NCBI GenBank assembly: GCA_003222055.1
Contig: QHUT01000054.1
Coordinates: forward strand, 15,022 to 79,021
Source: Gemmatimonadota bacterium
Lineage (GTDB): Bacteria > Gemmatimonadota > Gemmatimonadetes > Gemmatimonadales > GWC2-71-9
Direction: 5' to 3'
Length of the DNA stretch: 64,000 nt
Shown: positions 36,735 to 45,001 of the stretch, piece by piece
How the letters are laid out: each line of letters starts with the position of its first letter
Position numbering within the stretch: position 1 is the first letter of the stretch
Notes under the pieces: generated by a model
What the model saw: only the letters and a program-made list of their open reading frames with translations
Database searches by the model: none
What the model was told of the DNA's origin: nothing
Made by a program: the position numbers and the translations under genes

Positions 36735-36812
36735 ATTGCGGATTGCGGATTTCGGATTGCGGATTCGAAAGTCGGGCGTCCAATCCGCAATCCACAATCC
36801 GCAATCCGCAAT
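36735..36812. repeat. Heptamer-array palindromic element, family A, copy A2
   Basis: Left arm ATTGCGGATTGCGGATTTCGGATTGCGGATT (36735..36765). Loop CGAAAGTCGGGCGTCC. Right arm AATCCGCAATCCACAATCCGCAATCCGCAAT (36782..36812). 29 of 31 positions are complementary. It fills the queA-tgt gap. Confidence 0.95.
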
Positions 36813-37864
36813 CAGAGTACCGCCATTGCATCCCCATACGAGTAAAACCGGTATCCCTCCCTTACCGCTTCCCCGTACGCCCGCATGACGTTGTCATAGC
36901 CCCCGAACGCGCACACCAACATTAGCAGGGTCGAGCGCGGCAGGTGGAAGTTCGTGAGCAGCCGGTCGACCGCGCGGAACGAGTACGGGGGGTGAATGAA
37001 GAGCCGGGTCTCGCCGGCGCCCGGAGCGATGCGGCCGCGCTCGCCGGCAAGCGTTTCGAGCGTGCGCACGACCGTGGTCCCGACCGCCCAGACGCGACCT
37101 CCCGCTTCCCGTCGCTCGTTGATGATCCCGGCCGCGCTGTCGCTCACCCGGTACGGCTCGTCGTGCATCGCATGGCGCGCGAGGTCGTCGGTCTCGACCG
37201 GCTTGAAGGTGCCGGGGCCGACGTGCAGGTCCACTTCCGCGAGCGCCACGCCCTTGTCGCGCAGCCGGTCCAACAGGTCGCGCGTGAAATGCAATCCGGC
37301 CGTGGGAGCGGCGACGCTGCCGTCGTGTGCCGCGTACACCGTCTGGTAGCGCTCGCGATCCTCGGGGCGCGGCGCGCGGCGGATGTAGGGCGGCAGTGGC
37401 ACCTCGCCGTACTTGGCGAGCGTGGCCGGGGCGTCGAGCGCGCCGACGAACCGCACCCGGCGGAGGCCGCCTCCCAACGCCTCGACGATCTCCGCGGTGC
37501 TGTCGGGGCCGAACGTCACGCGGCGTCCCGACTTGAGCTTGCCTCCGGGATGCCCCATGGCGAGCCAGGTCCCATCGGGTAGCTCCCGGACGAGCAAGAG
37601 TTCGGCCTTGCCGCCGGACCCGCCCATCCCGCTTCCCGCAAGCCGCATCCCGTGCAGTCTCGCCGGAATCACGCGTGACACGTTGACGACGAGCACGTCC
37701 TCCGGCGCCACCAGATCGACGACGTCGACGAACCGCCCGTGGCGGATCGCCCCGCTGGCGCGATCGAGCACCAGGAGGCGACTCCCGCCCCGATCGGGGA
37801 GCGGGTCTTGGGCGATCTGCTCGGCTGGCAGACTGTAGTCGAAGTCTGAAGTTCGGTAGAGCAC
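36812..37864 (-). CDS. queA: S-adenosylmethionine:tRNA ribosyltransferase-isomerase
   Basis: The start GTG 37864 gives (M)LYRTSDFDYSLPAEQIAQDPL, which aligns with E. coli MRVTDFSFELPESLIAHYP. Also TRVIPARL-like VSRVIPARL, AAPTAGLHFT and FRFYSYGDAM. The track ORF N-terminus runs through repeat A3. Confidence 0.92.
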   Translation of the reverse strand: MLYRTSDFDYSLPAEQIAQDPLPDRGGSRLLVLDRASGAIRHGRFVDVVDLVAPEDVLVVNVSRVIPARLHGMRLAGSGMGGSGGKAELLLVRELPDGTWLAMGHPGGKLKSGRRVTFGPDSTAEIVEALGGGLRRVRFVGALDAPATLAKYGEVPLPPYIRRAPRPEDRERYQTVYAAHDGSVAAPTAGLHFTRDLLDRLRDKGVALAEVDLHVGPGTFKPVETDDLARHAMHDEPYRVSDSAAGIINERREAGGRVWAVGTTVVRTLETLAGERGRIAPGAGETRLFIHPPYSFRAVDRLLTNFHLPRSTLLMLVCAFGGYDNVMRAYGEAVREGYRFYSYGDAMAVL

Positions 37865-37870
37865 GCCGAG

Positions 37871-37952
37871 AATTGCGGATGGCGGATTTCGGATTGCGGA
37901 TTCGAAGGTCGTGGGTCCAATCCGCAATCCGCACTCCACAATCCGCAATCCG
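37871..37952. repeat. Heptamer-array palindromic element, family A, copy A3
   Basis: AATTGCGGATGGCGGATTTCGGATTGCGGATT, loop CGAAGGTCGTGGGTCC, then AATCCGCAATCCGCACTCCACAATCCGCAATCCG. It fills the ruvB-queA gap. Confidence 0.95.
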
Positions 37953-37954
37953 TG

Positions 37955-38995
37955 TTAGCCGTCAAACATCGTCGGCTGGTCCGCGCTTCGGGGCGGCGTG
38001 AAGCCGAAATGCTTGTACGCGCCTGCCGTGGCGCAGCGGCCGCGCGGCGTGCGCGCCAGGAACCCCTGCTGCATCAGGAACGGCTCGTACACTTCTTCGA
38101 GCGTGCCGGCGTCCTCCCCCACGGCGGCGGCGATGGTGGTGAGTCCCACCGGGCCCCCGTCGAACTGCTCGATGATCGTCTTGAGGATACGCCCGTCCAT
38201 GTCGTCGAGACCGAACTCGTCTACGTCCAGGCGTTGGAGGGCCTCCCCCGCTACCTGCGCCGTGATCTTGCCGCCGGCGCGCACCTGGGCGTAGTCGCGG
38301 ACCCGCTTCAGCAGCCGGTTCGCGACGCGGGGCGTCCCGCGACTGCGGCGGGCGATTTCGGCGATGCCTGCGACGTCCGCGGGGACGCCCAGGATCCCGG
38401 CCGAGCGGCTGATGATCTGCGCCAGGTCGTCCGGCGGATAGTAGGAGAGGCGCTCTACCAGCCCGAAGCGCGCGCGCATCGGCGGCGTCAGCAGGCCGAA
38501 TCGGGTGGTCGCCCCGATCAGCGTGAACCGCTCGAGCGCCATCGGAATGGTCTGCGCGTGCGGACCCTCGGCGACGCGGACGTCGACCCGGTAGTCCTCC
38601 ATCGCGGGGTAGAGGAATTCCTCGAGCGCCGGGCGCAGGCGGTGCACTTCGTCGATGAACAGGATGTCGTTCGCCTGGAGCGACGTGAGCAGGCCCACCA
38701 GGTCTCCCGGCCGCTCGAGCACCGGGCCCGAGGTCGTGCGGACGCTCACGCCCAGCTCCTTCGCCATGAGCAGCGCGAGGGTCGTTTTGCCGAGTCCCGG
38801 GGGCCCGAAGAACAGCGTGTGGTCGAGGGGCTCCCGCCGCTGCTTCGCTGCGTCGATGGCGATTTGGAGCGACTCCTTCACCTTCGCCTGGCCGACGAAC
38901 TCGTCCAGCCCCGACGGCCGCAGCGCGGCGTCGGTGAGCCGCTCGTCGGGCAGGGCGTCCGGCGTGGTGACCTGGGTCCGCGCGCGCGTGCTCAC
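37955..38995 (-). CDS. ruvB: Holliday junction branch migration helicase RuvB
   Basis: [19 protein letters not shown]...[14 protein letters not shown]...IDEVHRL. The start GTG 38995 forms a GTGA overlap with the small ORF stop. The Arg-rich extension to 39154 is judged off-frame. Confidence 0.92.
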
Positions 38996-39177
38996 GCCGC
39001 CTTGTTCCCCAGGGGCCGCGCGCGCCACCGCACCGGTCGCGCGTCGGCTTCGAGCGCATGCCTGGTGTGGCAGGCGACGCACTCGTCCGTGGCGCGCGTC
39101 GCGCCGTCGGGCACGAGGAGCCGGTTGGTCGAGCCGCAGCGTGTGCAGATCCACTCAGCGGTGAGGGCCATGGTCAT
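38992..39177 (-). CDS. Small zinc-ribbon protein (CxxC...CxxC), 61 aa, between ruvA and ruvB
   Basis: [40 protein letters not shown]... Its ATG overlaps the ruvA stop (ATGA) and its TGA overlaps the ruvB GTG (GTGA). Nearly all third codon positions are G/C in this frame. Confidence 0.65.
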
Positions 39178-39779
39178 CCTTTGGTGAGCAGTTGCAGGGC
39201 GCGCCGCACCAGCGTCTCCGGGTCGACACCGCTTCCACCGTCCGCGGCGAGCACGTGGCGCAACGCGCGGTCGGCCTCGACGGTCGCGTACCCGAGCCGC
39301 TCGAGTGCGTGGAGCGCCGCTTCTGCCGCCCCCGCCGCTCCTCCCGCCACCATCGCTCCCCCCGCTTCCTCAAACTCGCCGAGCTTGTCGGCCAGTTCAA
39401 GCGCCAGCCGCTCGGCCGTCTTCTTCCCGATCCCGCTCACCGACGCGAGCAACGCGATGTTCCGCTCCTTCACCGCCCGCGCCCCACGCTCCACCCCCAG
39501 GGCGGACATCAAGGCGATCGCGATCTTCGGCCCCACGCCGCTCACGCCGATGAGCCGCTGGAAGAAGCGGCGGCCGGCGTCGTCGTGAAACCCGTAGAGC
39601 GACCAGCCGTCCTCGCGCACCACCAGCTCGGTGGCGAGGGTGACCGTCTCGCCCACCGCGGGCAGTCGCTCCATCACGCCCAGCGGCACCACGATCTCGT
39701 AGCCGACGCCGCCCGCGGTGTGGATCAGGACGCGGTCCGCCTGCTTGGCGGCGAGGCGCCCGGCGACCTGAGCGATCAC
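39174..39779 (-). CDS. ruvA: Holliday junction DNA-binding protein RuvA
   Basis: MIAQVAGRLAAKQADRVLIHTAGGVGYEIVVP...LIGVSGVGPKIALALM-like...GIGKKTAERL. Confidence 0.92.
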   Translation of the reverse strand: MIAQVAGRLAAKQADRVLIHTAGGVGYEIVVPLGVMERLPAVGETVTLATELVVREDGWSLYGFHDDAGRRFFQRLIGVSGVGPKIAIALMSALGVERGARAVKERNIALLASVSGIGKKTAERLALELADKLGEFEEAGGAMVAGGAAGAAEAALHALERLGYATVEADRALRHVLAADGGSGVDPETLVRRALQLLTKG

Positions 39780-40270
39780 GTCCGCAGGATGTGGGTGAGC
39801 GCCACGGCCACGCCGTCGGCCGCGTCGGCGGGTCGGGGGGCCTCTTTGAGCCGCAACAGCCGGGCGACCACGCTGCCGATCTGCGCCTTCGGGGCCCCGC
39901 CCGCCCCCGCCACCGTTTTCTTGACCGTCGCCGGCGGATACTGCGCGATGGCGAGGCCCGCCTGCTCGGCGGCGAGCAGGATGACGCCCCGGGCGTGCCC
40001 GAGGACCAGCGTGGTATGGACGTTCTTCGCGTAGAAGGCGTTCTCCAGCGCCAGCGTGCCGGGGCGATGCCGCGCGATCAGGCCGGTGATGTGCTCATGG
40101 AGGGCGCGCAGCCGCTCGGGGAGGGGGCTCTTGGCGGCGAAGCGGATCACGCCACACTCGATCAGCCGGGCCACCCGGTCCGGCCGGTCCCGTGCGGAGC
40201 CGCCGTTCCCGGTCTCGATCACGCCATAGCCGGTGACCGCCGTGCCCGGGTCGACGCCCAGGACCTTCAC
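39776..40270 (-). CDS. ruvC: Crossover junction endodeoxyribonuclease RuvC
   Basis: MKVLGVDPGTAVTGYGVIE...ALENAFYAKN...ADAADGVAVAL. Confidence 0.92.
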   Translation of the reverse strand: MKVLGVDPGTAVTGYGVIETGNGGSARDRPDRVARLIECGVIRFAAKSPLPERLRALHEHITGLIARHRPGTLALENAFYAKNVHTTLVLGHARGVILLAAEQAGLAIAQYPPATVKKTVAGAGGAPKAQIGSVVARLLRLKEAPRPADAADGVAVALTHILRT

Positions 40271-40271
40271 G

Positions 40272-41021
40272 TCACGCCGTCGCCGCCGCCAGCGCCTCGG
40301 CGTCGATGTCGAAGTTGGATGACACCTTGGCGACGTCGTCCATTTCTTCGAGCGCGTCGATCAGCGAGAGCAGCTGCTTCGCGTCCCTGCCGTCCACCTT
40401 CACGGTGCTCTTGGGGAGCAGCGCGATCTCGGCGGCCTGTACCGCGATTTTCTTCGCCTTGAGCCGCTCGCTGATCAGATGCAGCCGGCCCGCGGGTCCG
40501 GTGATGAGAAACACCTCGCCCTCGCGCACCATGTCTTCCGCGCCGGCATCGAGCGCCGCCTCCATCACCGCGTCCTCGTCGGCACGCGTCGCGTCCACGG
40601 TGATCTGGGCCTTGCGGTCGAACATCCACGCCACCGAGTTCGCGGCACCGAGGTTGCCGCCGTGGCGCTGGAACACGTGGCGAATCTCCGCGACGGTGCG
40701 GTTGGCGTTGTCCGTGGTCGCTTCGATGAGCAGCGCCGCGCCGCCGGGACCGTACCCCTCGTAGGTGACCTCTTCGTAGGTCACGCCTTCGAGCTCGCCG
40801 GTCCCCTTCTTGACGGCGCGCTCGATATTGTCGAGCGGCATGTTCTCCGCCTTGGCGGCGTCGATGGCGGTGCGGAGCCGGGCGTTGCCCGCGGGATCGC
40901 CGCCGCCCTGCTTGGCGGCGATCGTGATCTCGCGGATCAGCTTGGTGAAGAGCGCGCCCCGCCGCGCGTCGGTGACGGCCTTCTTCCGCTTGATCTGTTT
41001 CCACTTACTGTGGCCGGCCAT
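40272..41021 (-). CDS. YebC/PmpR family DNA-binding transcriptional regulator
   Basis: MAGHSKWKQIKRKKAVTDARRGALFTKLIREITIAAKQGGGDPAGNARLR. Confidence 0.92.
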   Translation of the reverse strand: MAGHSKWKQIKRKKAVTDARRGALFTKLIREITIAAKQGGGDPAGNARLRTAIDAAKAENMPLDNIERAVKKGTGELEGVTYEEVTYEGYGPGGAALLIEATTDNANRTVAEIRHVFQRHGGNLGAANSVAWMFDRKAQITVDATRADEDAVMEAALDAGAEDMVREGEVFLITGPAGRLHLISERLKAKKIAVQAAEIALLPKSTVKVDGRDAKQLLSLIDALEEMDDVAKVSSNFDIDAEALAAATA

Positions 41022-41039: not shown

Positions 41040-41930
41040 TCACCGATCCGGGTCGAGCATATCCTCGAACCGCATCCAGCGTCGATAGAAGTACAGGTCG
41101 ACGAAGCCGGTCGGCCCGTTGCGGTTCTTGAGCACGATCAATTCCGTGGCGCCGTCCACGCCGTAGCCCGGGTTGTACATCTCCTCCCGGTACAGCCCGA
41201 GCACCAGATCGGCGTGCTGCTTGATCGCGCCCAGGTGTCCGAAGTCGTCGAGCGCGGGCCTGGCGTTGGGGCGCTTGGCGTCGAACCGGGGCAGCTGCGA
41301 CACCACGACGAGCGCCACCTGGCGCTCGAGCGCCAGCGCCTTGAGCCGCTGCAGCACCAGCGCCAGGTCCTCGTCCTGCGTCGAGCGGGCCACACCCGAA
41401 GGCGACGGCACGAGCTGCAGGTAGTCCACGATCACGAGACCCAGCGGTGGCAGGGGCTCGAGCCGCCGGGCGACGGACTCGAAATCCGGGGCCGCGAGGG
41501 ACAGCGTGGTGAGCGGGAGGTCGCGCAGCCGCACGGCCGCACCGCCGATGCCGGCGCGCGTCTCGTCGTTGAGCTTGGCGCCGCGCAGCTCGTCCACGGC
41601 CACCCGCCCCTCGATCGCGAGCGCGCGCTCCATGAGGCGCTCTTGGTCCATCTCTCCCGAGAACAGCGCGACCGCGGTGCCGCGCTGCGCCACGCGCAGG
41701 GCCAGTCCCAGCGCGAGCGCCGACTTGCCGGAGCCGATGTCGCCTCCCAGCACCACGAGGTCGCGGCGACGCACCCCACCCCCCAACAGCCGGTCGATGG
41801 ACGGGAAGCCCGTGGGGATCGTGTCGCTCGGGACGTCGCCCGGGCGCTGCTGATCCACCCGCGCGACGAGGGACTCGGGTGAGGGTGAAGAGGACTGGGA
41901 CAGGCGTTTCGGGAACCGACGGCTCGGCAT
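41040..41930 (-). CDS. DnaB-helicase C-terminal (RecA-fold) domain protein lacking the N-terminal domain, about 296 aa
   Basis: PTGFPSIDRLLGGGVRRRDLVVLGGDIGSGKSALALGLAL (Walker A), LVIVDYLQLV (Walker B), VVVSQLPR, ADLVLGLYREEMY and LKNRNGPTGFVDLYF. The start is ATG 41930. The track ORF extension to 42005 crosses repeat E. Confidence 0.75.
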   Translation of the reverse strand: MPSRRFPKRLSQSSSPSPESLVARVDQQRPGDVPSDTIPTGFPSIDRLLGGGVRRRDLVVLGGDIGSGKSALALGLALRVAQRGTAVALFSGEMDQERLMERALAIEGRVAVDELRGAKLNDETRAGIGGAAVRLRDLPLTTLSLAAPDFESVARRLEPLPPLGLVIVDYLQLVPSPSGVARSTQDEDLALVLQRLKALALERQVALVVVSQLPRFDAKRPNARPALDDFGHLGAIKQHADLVLGLYREEMYNPGYGVDGATELIVLKNRNGPTGFVDLYFYRRWMRFEDMLDPDR

Positions 41931-41943
41931 GACGGCCCCTCCT

Positions 41944-41989
41944 GTGCGTCTGTGCGTCTGTGCGTCTAGCCTACTATAGATGTAGACGC
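41944..41989. repeat. (GTGCGTCT)x3 octamer array ending in a 7-bp hairpin
   Basis: GTGCGTCTGTGCGTCTGTGCGTCT at 41944..41967. GCGTCTA (41962..41968) pairs with TAGACGC (41983..41989). The GCGTCT core is the same as in element 1675..1790. Confidence 0.85.
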
Positions 41990-42351
41990 GCCGAGCGCGC
42001 TGCAACCGCGATGGCGTCGCCCGCCTCGGCGCCGAGCACCTCGCGGGCCGGCGCGACCAGCTGGGAGAGGACCATCGCGGCGGCGGCGGGTGTGGCGGGC
42101 TCGAGCTGCTGGCGCGCCGCGGCCAGCGCCCGCCGCAGCGGCCCCGACAGGGCGAGGCTCGTGAGGCGGGCCTCGAGGGCTTGGAGCCGGCGACGGTGGT
42201 TCCTCCCCGTCACGGGGTGCGGCGGCAGCAGCGCCTCGGCGCAGCGCACGACCAGCCAGAGCGCGAACAGGTCCTGGCGCGCGGGTCCGCGGACGGCGTC
42301 GGCCACGAGACCGATCAACCGCTCTTCCGCCGGCGTGGTGGCGCGGCTCAC
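41974..42351 (-). CDS. Hypothetical protein, about 125 aa
   Basis: GTG 42351 forms a GTGA overlap with the GT9 stop. G/C-rich third positions. The upstream Arg-rich part of track ORF 41974..42864 is rejected. I recognise no family. Confidence 0.45.
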   Translation of the reverse strand: MSRATTPAEERLIGLVADAVRGPARQDLFALWLVVRCAEALLPPHPVTGRNHRRRLQALEARLTSLALSGPLRRALAAARQQLEPATPAAAAMVLSQLVAPAREVLGAEAGDAIAVAARSARLHL

Positions 42352-43343
42352 GCGACCAGGCGATCCACCGCGGCGGCCACGTCCGCGGGCGTGATGTCGG
42401 CGAGGCAGCGATGGTGCCCGAGGGGGCAGGCGGCCGTGCCGGTGGCCGAGCAGGGACGGCAGTCGAGCTCGCGTTCGAGCACCACGGAGGGGGCCACGTA
42501 CGGGAAGAAGCCGAACTGCGCGACCGTAGGCCCGAACAGCGCGACGACCGGCGTGTCGACGCCGGTCGCCATGTGCATGATGCCCGTGTCCCCCGATACG
42601 ACGACGCGGGCGCATTGCAGCAGGGCGCCCGTCTCCTGGAGCGAGAACTCTCCGGCGGCGCTCGCCGCTGCGCCTCCCGCCACGAGCTGCTGGGCGAGGC
42701 CGCGGTCTTCCGGCCCGCCGACCACGACGGCCCGGTACCCGGCCGTGCGCAGGCGTTCGGCCAGGGCAGCCCAATGCGCGATGGGCCAGCGCTTGGTGGC
42801 GTGGGCGGCGCCGGGCCCGAGCGCCGCGAGCGGCGCGTCGGCGAGGCCGCGCTCCGCGAGCCACTGCGCCACCCGTGCGGTGGCGCCCGCGCCGAGCCAG
42901 AACTCAGGGGGACCGCCGTCGGGGCGGGCGTCGAGCCGGCGCGCGGCCTCGAAGTAGCGCTCGGCCACGGGCGTGGGGCGGCGGTAGGCGTCGAGCTTGG
43001 TGGAGATGAGCAGCGAGCGGGCCAGCTTCCGCTTGCGGTACCCCGACCAGCGGCAGCGCACCAGCAGGCGCAGCCCGGCGCTGCGGATGCTGCCGTGGAG
43101 GTCGAGCCCGTGGGTCGGCGCCAGTGTTCGCAGCCGCCGGGCCAGGTGGCGCAGCGGCTCGTCCTGCTCGAGCGCGACGACTGCGGCGACGTAGGGGTTG
43201 TCGGCGACGAGCGGCGCCATCGCGCGCTTCGTCACATACACGAGCTTCGCCTCGGGGTGGCGGCGGGCGAGCGCCCGCACGAGCGGCGTGGTGAGCAGGA
43301 TGTCGCCGATGGAGCTGAACCGGACGAGGAGGACGCACAGCAC
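42348..43343 (-). CDS. Glycosyltransferase family 9 (LPS heptosyltransferase-like)
   Basis: VLLVRFSSIGDILLTTPLVRALARRHPEAKLVYV...SGDTGIMHMA. GTG start. Confidence 0.85.
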   Translation of the reverse strand: MLCVLLVRFSSIGDILLTTPLVRALARRHPEAKLVYVTKRAMAPLVADNPYVAAVVALEQDEPLRHLARRLRTLAPTHGLDLHGSIRSAGLRLLVRCRWSGYRKRKLARSLLISTKLDAYRRPTPVAERYFEAARRLDARPDGGPPEFWLGAGATARVAQWLAERGLADAPLAALGPGAAHATKRWPIAHWAALAERLRTAGYRAVVVGGPEDRGLAQQLVAGGAAASAAGEFSLQETGALLQCARVVVSGDTGIMHMATGVDTPVVALFGPTVAQFGFFPYVAPSVVLERELDCRPCSATGTAACPLGHHRCLADITPADVAAAVDRLVA

Positions 43344-43399
43344 GTGCCAAATAAGTCCTGCGTTGCCCGGGTTCGCCAGTCGCCATTAGCTTAGGCCTT

Positions 43400-45001
43400 A
43401 TGGCGCGGCCCAAGACCATTCTGTGGGTGGACGACGAAGTGGAGGGGCTCGCCGCCCACCGTCGCTTTCTCGAAGCCCAGGGGTTCAGCATCGCGTCGGC
43501 GGCGCACGGCGACGACGCTCTCGCGCTCCTGCGGCGCCAGTCCTACAGCATCGTGCTGCTCGACGAGCAGATGCCGGGGCGGCGCGGGCTCGAGCTGATC
43601 GGCGAGATCCGGGCGATCGACGCCGGCGTCCCGGTGGTGATGGTCACCCAGAGCGAGGACGAAGGCACGCTGCGCGAAGCGATCGGCATCGAGGTGGACG
43701 ATTACTTGGTCAAGCCGGTCCAGCCGCGCCAGATCCTCTCGGTCGTGACGCGCCTGCTCGAGGGCGACCGCATCCGCCAGCAGCGGCTGGCACGCGACTT
43801 CGTCACCCGGTTCCGCGAGCTCGAAGGGCGCCGCGGCGCGACGCTCGCCTGGCGCGAATGGATCGAGCTGGTCGCCGAGCTGGCCCGCTGGGAGGTGCGG
43901 CTGGCGGCCGCCAACGAGCCCGGGCTGTCGGAGGCGCTGCGCGCGCTGCAGCGGTCGCTTCGCAAGGACTTCGCCGAGTACGTGGCGCGCCAGTATCCCC
44001 GCTGGCTCGCCGCCCCGGAAGGCGACCGGCCGCCGCTCTCGGTCGACGTGGGAGCGGAGTTCCTGGTGCCGGTGCTCAAGGCCGAGGGACGCGCGCTGTT
44101 CGTCGTGATCGACTGCCTCCGGCTCGACCAGTGGGAGGTGCTGCGCGATCTGGTGACGCCGCTGTTCGACGTCGAGGAGTCGCACTACTACAGCATCCTC
44201 CCGACCGCGACGCCGTTCGCGCGCAACGCCATCTTCTCCGGGATGTTCCCGATGGAGATCGCGGCACGGCATCCTGCGTGGTGGGGGCAGCCGTCCGACG
44301 AGGAGAGTCTCAACGCGCACGAGGGTGAGCTGCTCGCCGAGCAGCTGGCGGAGCTCATCGGACGACCGGTCGCGGTGCGTTACGAGAAGCTGTTCAGCTC
44401 GGGCGAGGGGGACCTGGTGCGCCGGCTCCCGGCGCACCTCGCGCAGGACGGCGTCACGGCCCTGGTGTTCAACTTCGTGGACCAGCTCACGCACGGGCGC
44501 TCCGAGAGCGCGATCCTGTACGAGGTCGCGCGCGACGAGGCCGCGCTGCGGAGCCTCACGCGCACCTGGTTCGAGCGCTCCCCCGTGCTCGCGGCGCTGC
44601 GTGAGGCCGAGCGCCGCGGCGTGACGGTGCTGCTCACCACCGACCACGGCTCGATTCACTGCGAGACGCCGGCCACGGTGTACGCCAAGCGCGACGCGAC
44701 GGCCAACCTGCGCTACAAGTTCGGCGAAGATCTCCGCAGCGAGGATCCGGAGGCCGCGATCGCCGTGGAGGAGCTGAAGGCCTTCGGGCTGCCGGGCATG
44801 GGGCTCGGCGTCCGGCTGCTGCTGGCCACGTCGGACCGCTTCTTCGTCTATCCCACCAAGCTGCGCGAGTATCAGGCCCGCTACCGCGGGTCGTTTCTGC
44901 ACGGCGGCGTGACGCCGGAAGAAGTGATTCTCCCGGTCGCCCTGCTCACGCCGCGCGGGCGGTCGGGAGGCGGGCGCGCGGGCGGGGGAGGGACACGCTG
45001 A
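43400..45001 (+). CDS. Response regulator receiver fused to a PglZ/alkaline-phosphatase-superfamily domain (PorX-like)
   Basis: REC domain: ILWVDDEVEG...IVLLDEQMPGRRG...DDYLVKP. C-terminal domain: LFVVIDCLRLDQWEVL...ATPFARNAIFSG...FNFVDQLTHGRS...LLTTDHGS. Confidence 0.8.
   Translation: MARPKTILWVDDEVEGLAAHRRFLEAQGFSIASAAHGDDALALLRRQSYSIVLLDEQMPGRRGLELIGEIRAIDAGVPVVMVTQSEDEGTLREAIGIEVDDYLVKPVQPRQILSVVTRLLEGDRIRQQRLARDFVTRFRELEGRRGATLAWREWIELVAELARWEVRLAAANEPGLSEALRALQRSLRKDFAEYVARQYPRWLAAPEGDRPPLSVDVGAEFLVPVLKAEGRALFVVIDCLRLDQWEVLRDLVTPLFDVEESHYYSILPTATPFARNAIFSGMFPMEIAARHPAWWGQPSDEESLNAHEGELLAEQLAELIGRPVAVRYEKLFSSGEGDLVRRLPAHLAQDGVTALVFNFVDQLTHGRSESAILYEVARDEAALRSLTRTWFERSPVLAALREAERRGVTVLLTTDHGSIHCETPATVYAKRDATANLRYKFGEDLRSEDPEAAIAVEELKAFGLPGMGLGVRLLLATSDRFFVYPTKLREYQARYRGSFLHGGVTPEEVILPVALLTPRGRSGGGRAGGGGTR

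Follow-up and report, generated by a model that had tools for sequence, protein, structure and literature searches.

In a 64,000 nucleotide (nt) stretch of contig QHUT01000054.1 from a Gemmatimonadota bacterium of the order Gemmatimonadales (hereafter the window, to whose positions all coordinates refer), a gene on the minus strand (41040–41930, stop codon included) encodes a 296 amino acid (aa) ATPase of the DnaB family that lacks the N-terminal domain. We refer to this headless product as the short DnaB, and to the 125 aa product of the gene just upstream (41974–42351, minus strand) as its partner. The short DnaB is a genuine and conserved member of the DnaB family, a variant specific to its lineage, in which the DNA-binding loop is altered and which has an obligate partner of unrecognised fold. 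Judged from its sequence, it is very probably not a replicative helicase. Together the genes probably make up a two-gene module specific to Gemmatimonadota, in which a six-helix partner accompanies a DnaB paralogue, composed of a linker-type helix and a RecA-type ATPase domain, that would act as an accessory ring ATPase.

The ATG start codon of the short DnaB is preceded by a ribosome-binding site (AGGAGGGG, 41936–41943) and opens a frame of 296 codons. An extended reading of 321 aa from a TTG codon was rejected, as all homologues begin at the MP/MT..RR position. The Pfam model DnaB_C (PF03796) is matched over its whole length (positions 2–255 of 255; 175.3 bits against a cutoff of 27, E 1.9e-51), while the full-length model TIGR00665 is matched only at positions 165–433 of 435 and reaches 189.6 bits against a cutoff of 385.25; the protein also falls under the cutoffs of all 15 other NCBIfam DnaB models. 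Because the TIGR00665 match starts at position 165 and scores so far below its cutoff, the N-terminal domain, which forms the collar and binds primase, can be considered truly absent. Its own model, PF00772, has no match in the protein, and a tblastn search with 79 full-length DnaBs as queries found no remnant of it anywhere in the window. In phmmer comparisons with sequences of the Protein Data Bank (PDB), residues 28–291 align with residues 178–440 of the Thermus (Taq) and Geobacillus (Bst) DnaBs.

The AlphaFold2 (AF2) model of the short DnaB (pLDDT 84.9) divides it into three parts. Codons 1–16 (41883–41930) form a disordered basic tail (MPSRRFPKRL...; pLDDT <50), whose RR/K-rich start is conserved in the family; codons 18–26 (41853–41879) form a short, low-confidence helix where DnaB has its linker helix, with the TIGR00665 and PDB alignments beginning at about position 165–179, just before the sequence PTGF; and codons 37–293 (41052–41822) form a RecA-type ATPase core, modelled with high confidence, directly after which the protein terminates. 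The 50 best PDB neighbours of the model found by Foldseek are all DnaB or SPP1 G40P, with a TMq of 0.82 against 4ESV and a TMt of 0.82 against 6KZA, a construct of the E. coli DnaB C-domain. The original prediction, made from the window's sequence, had described a protein of about 296 aa consisting of the C-terminal domain of DnaB, and the Pfam, TIGR00665, phmmer and AF2/Foldseek results all bear this out; of the 40-residue low-complexity leader that it also described, residues 1–16 are indeed disordered, whereas residues 18–26 are modelled as a helix, albeit at low confidence. A frameshifted, split or misassembled dnaB was considered as well and rejected, given that hundreds of species share a length of about 290 aa and that the window holds no remnant of an N-terminal domain.

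The catalytic apparatus of the core is complete in the window protein. Each of the motifs quoted in the original prediction is present, namely GSGKS (residues 66–70), IVDYLQL (167–173), SQLPR (211–215), ADLVLGLYREE and KNRNGPTG (268–275), and the catalytic glutamate is E93 in SGEM. Conservation was counted over 189 close family members, 26 divergent representatives of clusters at 50% identity and 79 full-length DnaBs. K69, E93, D169, Q212 of motif H3, K268 and R270 are invariant in 188–189 of the 189 close relatives. The Walker A lysine (K69; 41721–41735, minus strand) is present in all 189 and replaced by threonine or cysteine in 6 of the 26 divergent representatives, the Walker B aspartate (D169; 41412–41432, minus strand) is invariant, and K268 and the arginine finger R270 of KNRNG (41115–41129, minus strand) are both found in 189/189 close members.

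The DNA-binding loop is where the family departs from DnaB. R381, E382 and G384 of DnaB (Geobacillus numbering) touch the phosphates of single-stranded DNA (ssDNA), and a basic side chain of the H4 loop makes this contact in several species (Bst R381, E. coli R403, H. pylori K373) (PMC6391071, PMC8421360). The window protein has DFGHLG (41229–41246, minus strand) instead of the canonical D(L/I)RESG, so that G-H-L-G stands at the R-E-S-G aligned with Bst R381–G384. The position equivalent to R381 is glycine in 188 of 189 close members, as against arginine in 79/79 full-length DnaBs. That this arginine is missing throughout the family, and catalytic residues in part of it, suggests a mode of substrate engagement unlike that of DnaB, and part of the conserved function of the short DnaB may be structural or regulatory.

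The partner is a real gene and the obligately linked neighbour of the short DnaB, also in the most divergent members of the family. It has 997 database homologues, and the 120 listed are almost all 122–128 aa long; those with an organism name belong to Gemmatimonadales or Gemmatimonadetes, and none of the 120 carries a Pfam domain. AF2 predicts six helices with high confidence (pLDDT 93.4, pTM 0.87). No family match was obtained in Pfam, NCBIfam, PHROG or PADLOC, and Foldseek found no structural neighbour with E<1 either in the viral BFVD or in the PDB, a database with many entries for DnaB N-terminal domains and with the known loaders. One candidate identity, a detached DnaB N-terminal domain (PF00772), was rejected: when the profile of the partner family was compared by hhalign with one built from the N-terminal portions of up to 79 full-length DnaBs, the probability was 0.5%, Pfam found no such domain, and none occurs among the 50 best PDB matches listed. 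The original prediction had seen no convincing similarity between the 125 aa reading frame and this domain, and profile and structure comparisons now agree. Two apparent natural fusions of partner and DnaB, P0033 (418 aa) and P0306 (416 aa), were also rejected as out-of-frame or frameshifted calls.

The short DnaB has 5120 homologous clusters, of which the best 120 are about 290 aa long. In a scan of one genome per GTDB species, at least 550 genomes encode a relative, and the best 80 of these (66–96% identity) are essentially all metagenome-assembled genomes of Gemmatimonadota, Gemmatimonadales or Gemmatimonadaceae. The common gene order, found in 82/82 loci with departures attributable to contig ends, is an ABC transporter and a response regulator with a PglZ domain (divergent), a GT9 gene, the partner, the short DnaB, yebC, ruvC, ruvA, ruvB and queA. 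No mobile-element genes stand beside the pair in about 85 loci. Distant members keep part of this arrangement. In P0253 (43% identity) and P0258 (41%) the divergent response-regulator-PglZ gene is followed by a small gene of 138–140 aa and then by the DnaB-like gene, and the small proteins are homologous to the window partner (45% and 23% identity). At one distant locus (L086) the small gene and the DnaB-like gene overlap by 4 nt, and at another (L084) the DnaB-like gene is followed by yebC-ruvCAB-queA-tgt-yajC. GT9 is absent from both, and the response-regulator-PglZ gene is the sole upstream neighbour retained in distant members.

The gap between partner and short DnaB is 1–9 nt in most species (mode 3 nt), and widens to 25–67 nt in the window's close relatives, where it is filled by a variable octamer repeat. 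The 43 nt spacer of the window (41931–41973, minus strand) holds the ribosome-binding site described above and 3.2 copies of the octamer, CTGTGCGT on the plus strand (41942–41967), which is the repeat E of the original prediction. Close relatives (L005, L009, L017, L022) differ in the sequence of the repeat and in its number of copies; most species lack it, and the window has no second occurrence of it. At three loci (L010, L012, L014) the tight coupling is broken by an insertion of about 690 nt with an extra open reading frame (ORF) whose start resembles a signal peptide or lipoprotein. In pairwise comparisons with the window, the ratio of nonsynonymous to synonymous substitution (dN/dS) is 0.23 for the partner and 0.21 for the short DnaB; because these values are like those of yebC (0.17), ruvC (0.21) and ruvA (0.22), both can be taken as functional genes. 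Across the order the pair has stayed at a single chromosomal site by vertical inheritance, with its two genes translationally coupled and held by purifying selection.

A canonical, two-domain DnaB is common in the same order. One example, P0327 (468 aa, PF00772 plus PF03796), lies on a chromosomal contig of 194 kb with 69.6% GC, the tetranucleotide profile of which correlates with that of Gemmatimonadales loci (r 0.91). P0327 and its 120 closest relatives (73–100% identity) are mostly 460–476 aa long, and those with an organism name are without exception called 'replicative DNA helicase' and come from Gemmatimonadales or Gemmatimonadota; relatives are also encoded on at least 548 metagenome contigs. 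A udg-dnaB-radA core is common to 7/7 canonical loci examined, within a fuller context of gmk-coaBC-udg-dnaB-radA-ispD. At these loci (L087, L089, L090) radA comes directly after dnaB, and in many cases the stop codon of the one overlaps or abuts the start codon of the other. The short DnaB is no nearer to this protein than to DnaBs elsewhere. Its core is 34–37% identical to Gemmatimonadales DnaB and 33–41% identical to the DnaBs of other phyla. Look-ups of 30 proteins, aimed at the closest full-length DnaBs, yielded four organism names (Acidimicrobiales, Desulfobaccales, Chloroflexota, Gemmatimonadales), and no full-length DnaB among them bore the name Gemmatimonadota.

In an unrooted neighbour-joining tree the short family is a clan on a long stem in 100/100 bootstraps and the host DnaBs form a clade in 100/100, and the two are joined in 0/100. 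The nearest neighbour of the short family is unstable (P0348 in 32, P0270 in 20 and P0281 in 19 of 100 replicates). Rooting the tree with RadA was rejected, as the outgroup was drawn into the long-branch family, the monophyly of which then came out at a spurious 24%. By these sequence comparisons the short family is not a recent copy of the host DnaB gene. Four lines of evidence make it very probable that the short DnaB is not the replicative helicase: an ordinary DnaB exists in the lineage, the short proteins form a clan apart, their DNA-contact loop is changed, and some divergent members are catalytically degraded. The losses of the Walker A lysine and the H3 glutamine in divergent members are incompatible with an essential replicative motor. 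The doubt about a replicative role voiced in the original prediction is hence shared here, and the phylogenetic placing that it called for gives a separate DnaB-family clan, with RadA and KaiC models matching only around the P-loop.

Set beside DnaB itself (TIGR00665; 4ESV, 2R6A, 6KZA), the short protein has a complete C-terminal RecA-type domain with Walker A and B, catalytic glutamate, H3 SQL and KNRNG arginine finger, a short helix at the linker position, 31–34% identity and a TMq of about 0.8 to solved DnaBs. Unlike DnaB, it has no N-terminal primase-binding and collar domain, lies under every NCBIfam DnaB cutoff, carries GHLG rather than RESG in the H4 loop, and belongs to a separate long-branch clan in a lineage with its own canonical DnaB. 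The arrangement of the pair recalls the loader-helicase gene pairs SPP1 G39P-G40P, lambda P-DnaB, DnaC-DnaB and DciA-DnaB, in that a gene for a small protein lies just upstream of, and coupled to, that for a DnaB-type ATPase. The 125 aa partner nevertheless has no sequence or structural similarity to the known helicase loaders or operators (DnaC/DnaI, DciA, lambda P, G39P), though it may be functionally analogous to them.

How such a pair might work can be outlined. The short DnaB would assemble into a DnaB-like ring, the likeliest state because the arginine finger acts on the ATP of the neighbouring subunit, and this ring would be expected from its motifs to hydrolyse ATP. The tight coupling across the whole family suggests that the two proteins would work as a complex, in which the partner might cap or regulate the ring in place of the missing collar, or deliver and load it onto its substrate. 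The short DnaB would then be an accessory motor or a nucleotide-dependent switch. Its DnaB-family ancestry and the conserved yebC-ruvCAB neighbourhood make DNA the most plausible substrate, during recombination, repair or fork processing; this is the weakest step of the proposal, and the engagement of DNA would have to differ from that of canonical DnaB. A motor function is possible because a DnaB-type RecA core without N-terminal sequences gave helicase activity alone (PMC4523182), so that truncated cores can unwind DNA, and because phages have a recognised family of single-domain DnaB-like helicases (phrog_243). At its boldest, the proposal is of a new two-component ring motor, in which a non-homologous partner replaces the collar and the arginine contact is dispensed with. 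Such a motor would give the whole phylum a second machine of DnaB type, one outside replication proper, for repairing forks, for recombination or for replication restart. We consider this bolder form unlikely.

Several observations weigh against the reading of the pair as an accessory ring ATPase. The Walker A lysine is gone in the six divergent representatives mentioned above and the H3 glutamine in several to many, with the same synteny kept, and the function conserved across the family may therefore not require ATP hydrolysis. Despite the lost arginine, DNA could still be contacted through backbone amides where DnaB has E382 and G384. The neighbourhood of ruv may reflect no more than conserved synteny, given the gap or antisense gene that can intervene (see below). 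Finally, the four NCBI assemblies in which a canonical dnaB was located (DATBLR01, JBBQFH01, JAICTD01, DATFHT01) do not overlap with the 80 listed carriers of the short DnaB, and no contig is common to the canonical and short sets, including those of the metagenome scan. The full-length dnaB that the original prediction had proposed to seek elsewhere in the genome was thus located at the level of the order.

An origin of the pair in a mobile element is possible, though we think it less than probable. The pair would then descend from a phage or plasmid cassette of loader and DnaB-like helicase that was fixed in the ancestor of Gemmatimonadales, and that now has a host function or is merely retained. 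This account concerns origin and is compatible with an accessory ring ATPase as the present function. C-domain-only DnaB-like helicases of phages and plasmids likewise have a single RecA-type domain of about 270–300 aa, and the short DnaB matches phrog_243 over the whole profile (17–268 of 273, E 1.2e-28). The best-scoring full-length relative, P0270 (43% identity), lies on an element with ParA/ParB, ArdC and Rad52, and another, P0301, on a contig that resembles a phage and encodes RecT, SSB and an integrase; both contexts are consistent with an old capture from a mobile element, and the short family never groups with host DnaB. Unlike the helicases of mobile elements, however, the short DnaB is chromosomal and its locus is fixed and vertically inherited in the whole order, down to 41% identity; its partner matches no PHROG family or BFVD structure, so that a phage counterpart was not found; mobile-element genes are missing beside the pair; and its nearest tree neighbour is unstable. 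The plasmid helicase RSF1010 RepA, a single-domain DnaB-like protein, offers a further comparison, and NF004629 (PRK05973, named only 'DNA helicase' in NCBIfam), which corresponds to plasmid helicases of this RepA type, scores 42.9 bits on the short DnaB against a cutoff of 156. The RecA-core proteins of mycobacteriophages have the same single-domain architecture (PMC4523182). Far less credible is a split replicative helicase, in which the partner would be the detached N-terminal domain and the two proteins together the cell's DnaB. In its favour, the two genes lie side by side with coupled translation, the partner consists wholly of helices and is roughly the size of that domain, and the Joint Genome Institute (JGI) name of the short protein is 'replicative DNA helicase'. 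This alternative is largely refuted by the hhalign probability of 0.5%, by the 50 best PDB matches listed, which include no DnaB N-terminal domain and none with E<1, by the abundance of canonical two-domain DnaB in Gemmatimonadales, and by the loss of the R381 equivalent throughout and of the Walker A lysine in some orthologous loci of the same synteny.

The two remaining alternatives assign the ring a different task from that of a general accessory motor. It might be a recombination ATPase, expressed together with yebC-ruvCAB and working alongside RuvABC during branch migration or resolution. The pair is indeed found just upstream of yebC-ruvC-ruvA-ruvB, on the same strand, at every locus, and in the window only 18 nt with no terminator-like site separate the short DnaB from yebC; RadA is an example of a DnaB-type ring that can drive recombination (PMC5512693). 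Yet the tight gap (17–42 nt) is confined to the window's clade, whereas about 45 of the 82 loci have one of 460–570 nt and a few have inserts of 1.2–2 kb. In L002 (10843–11310, minus strand) the gap is filled by an antisense ORF of 155 aa (Pfam PF27226, AF_1845) that overlaps the 3' end of the DnaB-like gene; this ORF was called there, not in the other loci with a gap of similar size, and it is missing from the window's clade. Because of the large gap in so many loci, the pair is therefore usually its own transcription unit; a scan for sigma-70 promoters and terminators around the genes found none. Moreover, the housekeeping block yebC-ruvCAB-queA-tgt-yajC is ancestral, RadA is already encoded beside dnaB in these bacteria, and the evidence is all positional and from one phylum. 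The short DnaB resembles RadA/Sms as a RecA/DnaB-type P-loop ring ATPase, of a kind acting outside replication, near recombination genes, but it has neither the N-terminal zinc finger nor the KNRFG motif nor the C-terminal Lon-like domain, and TIGR00416 (RadA) is matched in the P-loop region only (33.3 bits against a cutoff of 403), as are RadB models. The original prediction had suggested an ATPase associated with the Ruv genes; the position upstream of yebC-ruvCAB is conserved, but the association is positional and weak, and a dedicated Ruv partner is, in our view, doubtful. More doubtful still is a KaiC-like nucleotide switch, a ring outside DNA metabolism serving with its partner as a signalling or regulatory ATPase, possibly tied to the response-regulator-PglZ protein. 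That gene is kept upstream in distant members lacking GT9, the DNA-contact arginine is lost family-wide and catalytic residues in some lineages, and there is a weak KaiC match at the P-loop (PF06745, 27 bits). The match is confined to the first 68 model positions, however, with NF006799 at 24 bits against a cutoff of 408, while DnaB_C fits overwhelmingly better; the protein has a single domain rather than two, and divergent adjacency in one phylum is weak evidence.

The genes around the pair complete the picture of the locus. Upstream, a GT9 heptosyltransferase-like gene (42348–43343, minus strand; Pfam Glyco_transf_9) is translationally coupled to the partner gene only in the window's clade, where its stop codon overlaps the GTG start of the partner (GTGA). 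The gene for the response regulator with a PglZ domain (43400–45001, plus strand) diverges from the pair and its product has the same architecture as PorX, the regulator of the type IX secretion system. The 56 nt between it and GT9 (43344–43399) correspond to a divergent intergenic region of 56–59 nt that is well conserved across species (...GCTAAT..GCGACTGGCGAACCCGGGCAACGC...). Downstream lies a block of yebC, ruvC, ruvA, a small zinc-ribbon ORF and ruvB (37955–41021, minus strand). The small ORF (61 aa; 38992–39177, minus strand) has a CxxC...CxxCH pattern, its ATG overlaps the ruvA stop codon (ATGA), and about 5 nt separate its end from the inferred start of ruvB. It is present by tblastn in 69 fetched Gemmatimonadales loci, including the distant L084, and may be an unannotated small Ruv-associated protein. 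Further along, queA is flanked by two 84 nt hairpins (36735–36818 and 37872–37955) that resemble repetitive extragenic palindromic (REP) elements and consist of ATTGCGG heptamers. Each is an imperfect palindrome, the two are 89% identical, and they account for spurious ORFs whose translations read 'IRNPQSAI'.

DnaB is commonly regarded as the single, essential, two-domain helicase of a bacterium, and most of the known relatives with fewer domains come from phages and plasmids. In this abundant soil order, selection has maintained a reduced DnaB over the order's entire history, always with the same partner. Current names do not reflect this: in NCBI the short DnaBs are called 'DnaB-like helicase C-terminal domain-containing protein' or 'hypothetical protein', and in JGI/IMG many are called 'replicative DNA helicase', which is probably a misannotation and could mislead surveys of marker genes or replication genes in Gemmatimonadota. 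If the pair is a functional motor, it would show that a DnaB-type ring can work without the collar and without the standard DNA contact, and would add a new player to bacterial genome maintenance.

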